From: Escherichia phage PHB11
DNA: 64,000 bases
Direction: 5' to 3' (one strand)
Sequence record: MK524176.1
Shown here: positions 11,499 through 11,634 of the stretch, piece after piece
Position numbering within the stretch: the stretch's first letter is position 1
Layout: every line of letters starts with the position of its first letter
Notes under the pieces: generated by a model
The model's input: only the letters and a program-made list of their open reading frames with translations
Told to the model about the DNA's origin: nothing
Database searches by the model: none
Program-made: the position numbers and the translations under genes

Positions 11499-11634
11499 TA
11501 TCTTTGTAGATAAGTTATTAAGCTTCCCTGTGAGTATGCGACCACAAAGGTGAAAGGGTAGATTCTAGATTTAACCCGAAAAGACACATCGCTACAGACC
11601 TTAAGCAAGTCTGGGTAGCTTATCTACAAAGATA
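11499..11634 (+). other. Perfect 16-bp inverted repeat enclosing about 104 nt of structured sequence (candidate structured RNA)
   Basis: TATCTTTGTAGATAAG (11499-11514) versus CTTATCTACAAAGATA (11619-11634); an internal hairpin GCTACAGACC-TTAAGCAA-GTCTGGGTAGC shares the AGACC/GGTCT theme. Confidence 0.4.

Follow-up and report, generated by a model that had tools for sequence, protein, structure and literature searches.

Particles of Ro60 and Y RNA are shared by organisms ranging from bacteria to humans, and human Ro60 is an autoantigen in lupus and Sjögren's syndrome. Bacterial Y RNAs of the YrlA type are distinguished by a T arm, a closed acceptor and a D arm that follow each other in this order (PMC4201824), and phage pairs of Ro60 and Yrl RNAs are known from mycobacteriophages and the Thermus phage phiLo (PMC4201824; PMC12135203). 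Gp130 of phage Bas63 has been reported to be Ro60-like and to counter the ppl defence system, its Y RNAs being merely guessed at as 'some tRNA genes' (PMC11482910). By genomic setting, the closest described RNAs are RNA C and RNA D, two small RNAs of unknown role from the tRNA region of T4 (PMC3014915). Here we analysed a stretch of 64,000 nucleotides (nt) of Escherichia phage PHB11 (MK524176.1; the window, whose numbering is used throughout), in which an element of ~145 nt on the + strand (E1, ~11495-11639) lies within a large tRNA array downstream of a gene for a Ro60-like protein. E1 is in all probability a functional structured RNA, and the chances that it is a derived, Y-RNA-like partner of this protein appear about even.

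E1 came to attention through a perfect inverted repeat of 16 base pairs (bp), which the preliminary description of this DNA had located correctly: TATCTTTGTAGATAAG (11499-11514) is the exact reverse complement of CTTATCTACAAAGATA (11619-11634). The perfect repeat is in fact longer, comprising 19 bp (11496-11514 and 11619-11637), and with G·U pairs counted the arms form an uninterrupted RNA helix of 24 bp (11496-11519 and 11614-11637). No other perfect inverted repeat in the window reaches 14 bp with its arms 150 nt or less apart, and a perfect repeat of at least 16 bp occurred in none of 200 windows simulated with a first-order Markov model. The 136-nt RNA folds with -42.2 kcal/mol (z = -5.07), a stability reached by none of 200 shuffled sequences. 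E1 occurs in two alleles, type 1 (present in the window) and type 2, and in both of them a closing helix of ~24 bp surrounds three hairpins in a four-way junction (Table 1). Hairpin 1 is replaced in type-2 alleles by UCGUC-CCAUGAGUGCC-GAUGA. The base of hairpin 2 changes between the alleles from GGGU/ACCC to AGC.U/AGCU, and type 2 adds a UUUCCU/AGGAAA extension. Hairpin 3 adjoins the 3' closing arm without a gap. The local pairings proposed earlier are retained in part. GGGT/ACCC forms the base of hairpin 2 and has comparative support, whereas CCCT/AGGG, which competes for the same GGG (11556-11558), has none. The proposed CAGACC/GTCTGG hairpin exists as hairpin 3, but its pairing comprises only 5 bp, CAGAC (11595-11599) with GUCUG (11609-11613), around the 9-nt loop CUUAAGCAA. 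Similarly, the statement that E1 contains no open reading frame (ORF) requires qualification, as ORFs of 23-36 amino acids (aa) overlap it and appear as hypothetical proteins in some records; these are not coding, being broken in relatives by insertions or deletions of 1-2 nt and by the allele swap. A terminator was likewise rejected, in agreement with the preliminary description, since none was called at E1 and no U-tract is present (the tail reads AAUUUAAUGG).

E1 was found at the same position in 249 phage records of the genera Felixounavirus, Mooglevirus and Suspvirus (Ounavirinae). The window itself belongs to a Felixounavirus. A segment of it within the tRNA array has counterparts of 95-99% identity in over 200 phages of the Felix O1 type, which infect Escherichia, Salmonella, Shigella and Citrobacter; a search with this segment matched 251 records, 179 of them with at least 80% query coverage, and Bas63 (JohannRWettstein) is 98.9% identical to it. 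Type 1 is carried by ~189 records including the window and Felix O1, and type 2 by ~60 records including bumzen, fBSPA4, Sf16, Maleficent and SUSP1. The two alleles diverge heavily in their interior yet keep one plan. From an alignment of 19 distinct E1 sequences (A3), for which a consensus was calculated with RNAalifold and a covariance model (R1) was built, 33 consensus pairs were obtained, and 99.8% of the 627 pair cells are standard pairs. When the 3' partners were moved by 1-3 columns as a control, standard pairs fell to 24-52%. Compensatory double changes were identified at six pairs, of which the closing helix holds four and hairpins 2 (at its base) and 3 hold one each, compared with 0-1 in the slid controls. 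Type-2 sequences alone yielded 48 pairs, 99.3% of them paired, with five compensatory pairs, three of which lie in the hairpin 2 extension (UUUCCU/AGGAAA versus UCUCUU/AAGAGA).

Approximately 14% of the pair cells, at nine positions, are G·U, which would become A·C on the opposite strand or in a cruciform, and R1 scores E1 with 165.7 bits on the + strand and 44.3 bits on the - strand. Because many of the G·U pairs are valid only on the + strand, E1 is to be regarded as a + strand RNA rather than as a DNA site, a miniature inverted-repeat transposable element (MITE) or an ORF. The proposal of a structured small RNA is well supported by a fold that is kept with compensatory changes, in two alleles and three genera, and on the + strand only. 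The alternative proposal of a recombination or cleavage site is not supported at the level of DNA. A DNA element, be it a miniature transposable element bounded by terminal inverted repeats, a cruciform or a target for recombination or a homing endonuclease, could account for the perfect 19-bp arms of type 1, which bound ~140 bp as in MITEs; HNH homing endonuclease genes are dispersed in these tRNA arrays, and the alleles resemble exchanged cassettes. However, the arms of type 2 are imperfect as DNA, each of their mismatches being compatible with G·U on the + strand. Furthermore, E1 is present in one copy per genome with no other paired arms, lacks a target-site duplication (the repeat continues through the flanks), holds a fixed position in ~249 genomes and has internal hairpins that covary in a strand-specific fold. 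The single copy and the G·U pattern rule out a MITE or cruciform, and we consider a DNA-level element of any kind extremely improbable. Cleavage of the RNA, by RNase III in the helix and RNase P at tRNA-Lys, is plausible from the sequence and is considered below.

Both alleles have in common the closing helix, hairpin 3 and, in hairpin 2, the apex GAUU-CUA-GAUU, and what is swapped between them, as one cassette, is hairpin 1 with the lower part (base) of hairpin 2. This exchange does not track the Ro60-like protein, as fBSPA4 encodes a protein 99% identical to that of the window and carries a type-2 E1. A constant docking part combined with an exchangeable effector part would fit these data. 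The E1 alleles are also discordant with the phylogeny of the flanking genes: fBSPA4 and bumzen, which are Felixounavirus members with flanks like those of the window, carry an E1 of the Mooglevirus/Suspvirus type, which therefore points to cassette exchange by recombination in the conserved flanks.

ARAGORN identified 26 + strand tRNAs between 10515 and 16100, of which Rfam recovers 24. E1 is located in a gap of 456 nt between tRNA-Asp (11108-11185) and tRNA-Lys, where it follows unit D, a circularly permuted tRNA-like RNA, and lies 4 nt from tRNA-Lys. Sigma-70-like sites are present at 10368 and 10459, upstream of the array, with the next one at 11891, and no + strand terminator was called between the sites at 10459 and 11891. 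Given these promoter-like sites and the lack of an intervening terminator, E1 would most simply be co-transcribed with tRNA-Pro through tRNA-Ile.

The array is immediately preceded by ORF 8935-10350, which is on the same strand as E1 and has its stop codon 1,145 nt before the beginning of E1. Pfam assigns only DUF2828 and DUF7788 to its product, which also matches PHROG 850 ('RNA-binding protein'). The product has no match to Pfam TROVE, and searches of PDB sequences and profiles retrieved no solved Ro60 at the sequence level. In contrast, the AlphaFold model (predicted local distance difference test score, pLDDT, 88.6; predicted template modelling score, pTM, 0.88) has Ro60/TROVE structures as all of its 11 best Foldseek matches in PDB (E from 4e-8 to 6e-7; TMq 0.48-0.65). 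The alignments span the full length (513-558 columns) and include Xenopus Ro60, Deinococcus Rsr and Ro60 of the Thermus phage phiLo; the vWA domain also matches separately. The model contains the ring of HEAT repeats followed by a C-terminal vWA domain that characterizes Ro60/TROVE proteins, and the predicted resemblance to Ro60 is one of fold only. The protein is also 33-34% identical over its full length to mycobacteriophage proteins labelled 'Ro-like RNA binding protein'. Homologs were identified in 709 of 50,697 phage records, spanning phages of Proteobacteria, Firmicutes and Actinobacteria hosts. In many records the ORF is annotated as 'hypothetical', 'vWFA protein' or 'RNA-binding protein'.

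Between this gene and E1, the array contains four further non-tRNA elements, units A-D. All of them have an outer stem of 4 bp, a bulge of 3 nt (AGA) and an inner helix AGACC.../...GGUCU that is followed by G. The sequence (U)UACAGCAA or a one-base variant of it stands directly after the 5' strand of the inner helix in all four. We defined such a unit as a 5' stem beginning with AG or GG, 0-3 nt, [UA]ACAGCAA, a variable insert and a complementary strand ending in CU or CC and followed by G; units A and D fit this motif, and units B and C have the variants UGCAGCAA and UUCAGCAA, respectively. None of the four was found in Rfam. Unit D contains a complete circularly permuted tRNA (11398-11470), which is broken between the D and anticodon arms, exactly where the motif helix is attached, and its acceptor hairpin covaries between genera. 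With its 7-bp acceptor, unit D could be a substrate of RNase P by analogy with YrlA of M. smegmatis. Short coding sequences labelled 'hypothetical protein' or 'unknown' are annotated on either strand over E1 and units C and D (e.g., AF320576 ORF94, PP886228 and MZ501086); in all likelihood they are erroneous predictions over genes of non-coding RNAs.

The association of the motif with the gene extends to very distant phages. In 75 distant IMG/VR contigs encoding a homolog 39-47% identical to the protein, the gene strand has 84 copies of [TA]ACAGCAA no more than 800 nt from the gene, compared with 53 in the other 751 kb, which corresponds to a 10-fold higher density near the gene (Fisher p = 6e-39); on the opposite strand, seven copies lie near the gene. 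Of the 75 loci, 43 have one or more copies no farther than 800 nt away. The typical layout is an AG-stem, 0-3 nt, UACAGCAA, 14-110 nt and a stem-CU followed by G. The enrichment and position near the gene, rather than the closing stems, constitute the robust test for this family. In Klebsiella phage FBKp34 (L007, 6500-7116) the gene is followed by four to five units and then by a tRNA array. One of these units is permuted and tRNA-like, and a 114-nt 'tRNA-Asp' carries a motif hairpin between its D and anticodon arms. A motif hairpin within an otherwise normal tRNA at the D/anticodon junction, which is the permutation site of unit D, was observed both there and in a second contig (L071, 5600-5712). 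The mycobacteriophage Rumpelstiltskin (L121, 4445-4710) contains three units directly 3' of its 'Ro-like RNA binding protein' gene, with the order GG-stem, UA(A)CAGCAA, insert and stem-CC-AG, the middle one of which has a T arm, a closed acceptor and a D arm; the Rfam YrlA model gave no match to this middle unit at E <= 1. Contigs of Enterococcus or Listeria type contain three units just 5' of the gene. On this evidence, units A-D are likely Y-like RNAs of the phage Ro60-like protein. No description of the [TA]ACAGCAA motif was found in the searchable literature or in Rfam, and the (U)UACAGCAA family beside DUF2828 genes thus appears to be undescribed and, judged from these sequences, a more important lead than E1 itself.

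E1 resembles this family in part. With its flanks, hairpin 3 reads C-AGAC-CUUAAGCAA-GUCU-GG in type 1 and C-AGACC-CUUUAGCAA-GGUCU-G in type 2, giving the consensus AGACC-(C)UU(U/A)AGCAA-GGUCU-G with the same AGACC/GGUCU-G helix as in units A-D. Because the 3' strand of hairpin 3 continues into the closing arm, the closing helix and hairpin 3 together imitate the stack of outer and inner stems of the units, and hairpins 1 and 2 occupy the place of their AGA bulge. An element in an 88-kb phage (L046), whose Ro-like protein is 47% identical to the product of ORF 8935-10350, links the two architectures. At 7648-7748 of this genome a closing helix of ~22 bp encloses a canonical unit, AAAA / GAAG-ACA-UUCAGCAAA ... 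CUUC-UG. Its arms resemble those of E1 (UAAUCUUUAAGAUAC versus UAAUUAUCUUUGUAGAUAAG), and it is followed by UUUUAAU and tRNA-Pro, with the same UUUAAU|tRNA junction as in E1. By sequence, this element may be an intermediate form between E1 and the canonical units. It starts a few nt after a promoter-like site (TTGACA-17 nt-TTTAAT; region 7600-7760) and ends 8 nt before tRNA-Pro, a position that would make it the leader at the 5' end of the tRNA operon. The same genome contains another helix, of ~26 bp, at 11092-11206 between tRNA-Ser and tRNA-Ile.

Alternatively, E1 might be a structured RNA unrelated to the Ro60-like protein, serving as a decoy or sponge for a host nuclease, a double-stranded RNA (dsRNA)-binding protein or a defence sensor, or base-pairing via the invariant apex GAUUCUAGAUU. 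The conserved structure is in line with such a role, the swapped internal hairpins of the two alleles suggest diversifying or modular selection, and the motif of hairpin 3 departs from the family consensus; the tRNA region of T4 also yields small RNAs of unknown role (PMC3014915). However, E1-like sequences, which could point to a mimic of a host RNA or to a target, were absent from complete E. coli genomes. Moreover, E1 is embedded tightly among the Ro-motif units, and the L046 element ties the long-stem architecture to a canonical unit. A function unconnected with the Ro60-like protein is therefore improbable.

The window contains a second long-helix element, E2, for which R1 gives a weak match (12805-12894; 29.3 bits, E = 0.005). 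Its junction with the following tRNA, ...AAAGAUUUAAU|G, equals that of E1 (AAAGAU..UUUAAU|G), and Mooglevirus retains E2 with variation of the G·U and compensatory kinds; in some other phages its site is the end of an HNH endonuclease gene. Based on these similarities E2 is a probable paralog of E1. The sequence UUACAGCUU was considered as a copy of the motif in E2 and dropped as evidence, as it is not conserved in relatives.

The minimal substrate of RNase III is a helix of about two turns, as established for the E. coli enzyme, T7 early RNA and rRNA precursors. Like the helices cleaved in T7 early RNA and the stems flanking rRNAs, the E1 helix comprises at least 20 bp within a presumed polycistronic precursor and lies at the boundary of a product. 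The helices of E1 and E2 might thus be cis-acting RNase III sites that split the precursor 5' of tRNA-Lys and tRNA-Leu and set the leader for RNase P, the excised piece having no function of its own. With 24 uninterrupted bp, G·U included, E1 exceeds the 20 bp of uninterrupted dsRNA expected of such a site. In addition, apart from E1 and E2, no uninterrupted helix between 8 and 17 kb of the window reaches 16 bp. Each of the two stops 2-5 nt short of a tRNA, they share the junction AAAGAU(AA)UUUAAU|G, and L046 shows the same layout before tRNA-Pro. Contrastingly, a processing site would not need the interior of ~94 nt, which is conserved and covarying in E1, with the apex of hairpin 2 and hairpin 3 invariant or covarying in three genera, and most tRNAs of the array lack such a helix. 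Cleavage by RNase III is also compatible with a Ro60 partner, since it could simply mature E1. We therefore regard a purely cis-acting site as rather unlikely.

Compared with the Y RNAs (YrlA/YrlB, RF02553; Yrl1/Yrl2 of phiLo), E1 is likewise a small structured RNA encoded within 4 kb of a Ro60-type gene on the same strand, its 5' and 3' ends form a terminal helix with internal modules (here supported by covariation), and it is modular, with a putative protein-docking and a variable module. In its neighbour, unit D, the T arm, closed acceptor and D arm are arranged as in YrlA (PMC4201824; PMC12135203). Unlike YrlA, E1 lacks the sequence GNCGAAN0-1G near its 5' end: the only CGAA of type 1 (ACCCGAAAA) has no G two bases upstream, and type 2 contains no CGAA at all. 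T and D arms are also lacking. With lax filters, the Rfam YrlA model (gathering threshold 69 bits) matched neither E1 nor unit D at E <= 10. The model itself performs, as it gave 39.6 bits (E = 1e-5, below the gathering threshold) for the equivalent permuted tRNA-like unit of FBKp34. In contrast to known Y RNA systems, the shared motif is here (U)UACAGCAA, following the 5' strand of an AG...CU helix, the protein derives from a DUF2828 branch without Pfam TROVE, and the RNAs reside inside a tRNA operon. We conclude from the sequence comparison that E1 would be closest in its working to a Y RNA without being a member of YrlA. In setting alone, E1 is most like T4 RNA C and RNA D, as a non-tRNA RNA that is co-encoded with phage tRNAs and presumably released by tRNA processing. 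The T4-like phage KVP40 encodes a Ro60-like protein, although none is known from T4 itself.

A decayed tRNA or tRNA-like gene, i.e., a cloverleaf-like RNA with an over-long 'acceptor' stem, was also considered. The four-way junction with three hairpins, the last of which abuts the closing 3' strand like a T arm, and the location among tRNAs, with a permuted tRNA-like RNA as its neighbour, would be in line with such an origin. However, signatures of a T loop or D loop are lacking, neither ARAGORN nor Rfam RF00005 returned anything at E <= 10 with lax filters, and helix lengths and linkers are unlike those of tRNAs, so that this origin is very improbable.

We hypothesize that E1 is a stable non-coding RNA within the first polycistronic tRNA transcript. 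Its 3' end would be generated by the RNase P cut at the 5' end of tRNA-Lys, and its 5' end either as unit D matures or through an RNase III cut within the 24-bp helix. The long terminal helix would shield E1 from exonucleases, and hairpin 3 would stack on it, recreating the module of outer stem, inner AG...CU stem and (U)UACAGCAA. Hairpins 1 and 2 would represent an enlarged form of the 5'-strand bulge, which usually measures 3-4 nt, and E1 would have lost the variable region at the apex. The Ro60-like protein might dock on the module of helix and hairpin 3, as Ro60 does on the bulged stem of Y RNAs, while hairpins 1 and 2 may act as an exchangeable effector or tether that recruits or gates a partner, as the second module of Y RNAs tethers PNPase. 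The fold of E1 on the + strand is under selection, E1 is located in the tRNA operon downstream of a gene of Ro60 fold, the motif is associated with this gene, and E1 shares the likeness to the motif units in part. Transcription, processing, protein binding and function would be as proposed here.

Several observations weigh against the proposed partnership. The loop of hairpin 3 is, as judged by eye, the motif minus one base (UUAAGCAA or UUUAGCAA versus UACAGCAA) and has no insert. The GNCGAA sequence, the tRNA-like arms and the Rfam model of YrlA all find no counterpart in E1. The closing-stem test discriminates weakly, with closing stems at 67% of motif occurrences versus 41% of random positions. 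The compensatory changes mostly divide the two alleles or a few clades and represent few independent events, and none of them contradicts the fold. No homolog of E1 was found with R1 outside enterobacterial Ounavirinae, neither at the 82 distant Ro-like loci nor among IMG/VR stretches. A degenerate pattern scan of IMG/VR had returned 94 such stretches; 80 were searched again with R1 and only 22, from Ounavirinae contigs, scored, which marks the others as chance matches. Lastly, in one phage genome (L016; IMGVR_UViG_2706796742_000001, 5807-6052) recombination between the T arms of unit D and tRNA-Lys has left a natural deletion that fuses these two arms. E1 is missing entirely, as are the 3' half of unit D and the beginning (5' part) of tRNA-Lys, and this phage also lacks tRNA-Lys(UUU); if the assembly is correct, E1 is dispensable for viability.

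Table 1. Features of the window discussed in the text
Feature	Position	Strand	Description
E1 closing helix, 5' arm	11496-11519	+	24 nt, first 19 in the perfect repeat; covariation at four pairs of the helix
E1 hairpin 1	11524-11554	+	minimum free energy fold and type-2 consensus; allele-specific, least well supported helix
E1 hairpin 2	11556-11577	+	invariant apex GAUU-CUA-GAUU; covarying base
E1 hairpin 3	11595-11613	+	CAGAC-CUUAAGCAA-GUCUG; in type 2 AGACC-CUUUAGCAA-GGUCU; compensatory change of G-C to A-U
E1 closing helix, 3' arm	11614-11637	+	followed by UAAU, then tRNA-Lys
tRNA-Lys(UUU)	11642-11717	+	ARAGORN, Rfam
E2	12804-12893	+	27-bp uninterrupted closing helix, z = -4.66; immediately 5' of tRNA-Leu(UAG)
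Ro60-like protein gene	8935-10350	+	471 aa; DUF2828 and DUF7788/vWA; ortholog of Bas63 gp130; presumed protein partner
Unit A	10680-10760	+	AGACCAA-U-UACAGCAA...UUGGUCU-G
Unit B	10847-10920	+	AGGCCGU...UGCAGCAA...ACGGUCU-G; A13 run at 10894-10906
Unit C	11269-11353	+	AGACCAA...UUCAGCAA...UUGGUCU-G
Unit D	11359-11498	+	4-bp outer stem, AGA bulge, inner stem AGACCGUU/AACGGUCU, UACAGCAA, permuted tRNA
Unit D, anticodon-like arm	11398-11414	+	loop CCGGUAA; followed by variable region
Unit D, T arm	11419-11435	+	
Unit D, acceptor hairpin	11436-11453	+	7 bp, 4-nt loop AGAU
Unit D, D arm	11456-11470	+	

An Rfam/Infernal scan, recommended in the preliminary description, assigned E1 to no Rfam 15 family at gathering or permissive thresholds, including a search with a sub-window of 296 nt; the best permissive match (CssrB, 12.4 bits, E = 3) is at the level of chance. 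Literature searches on the motif, on RNAs of DUF2828 proteins and on Felix O1 transcriptomes returned nothing relevant; a paper on retron Eco2 in which Felixounavirus is named has no bearing on E1. Insertions in S19cd and ULIM3 were inspected and lie upstream of E1, and are uninformative on it.

Two other structured regions were observed in the array. Between tRNA-Asp and unit C (11217-11272, +) there are two adjoining hairpins, GAGAGGGCUAUUUAGCCCCUC and CCUCCCUUAAAGAGUUCUUACGAGUAUUCUUUAAAGGAG, which are nearly invariant in Felixounavirus, Mooglevirus and Suspvirus. Furthermore, tRNA-Ser(UGA) is bracketed by a 13-nt inverted repeat (12537-12549 and 12638-12650; 92% complementary), which places this tRNA within a longer helix.

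The roles of Ro60 and Y RNAs in bacteria and phages are barely understood, and the DUF2828 branch is common in large phages. Tentatively, and with somewhat less than an even chance, E1, E2 and units A-D may represent an undescribed, very widespread class of phage Y-like RNAs that are partners of the DUF2828 branch of Ro60-like proteins. This class would be defined by an AG...CU helix followed by (U)UACAGCAA, and E1 would be a new architecture within it, retaining the docking module and carrying its effector domain as an exchangeable cassette of two hairpins in the 5'-strand bulge. If this holds true, the ribonucleoprotein would serve in anti-defence, since gp130 counters ppl. The inter-tRNA spacers of the array thereby provide concrete candidates for Ro60 partners, namely four motif units, one of them containing a circularly permuted tRNA, and E1, and a simple sequence signature locates such RNAs beside the gene in very distant phages. 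The annotation of these genomes is also corrected, as many records place 'hypothetical protein' ORFs on the E1 RNA. What the phage Ro60-like protein binds, which module docks and whether the RNA is needed in anti-defence can now be tested.

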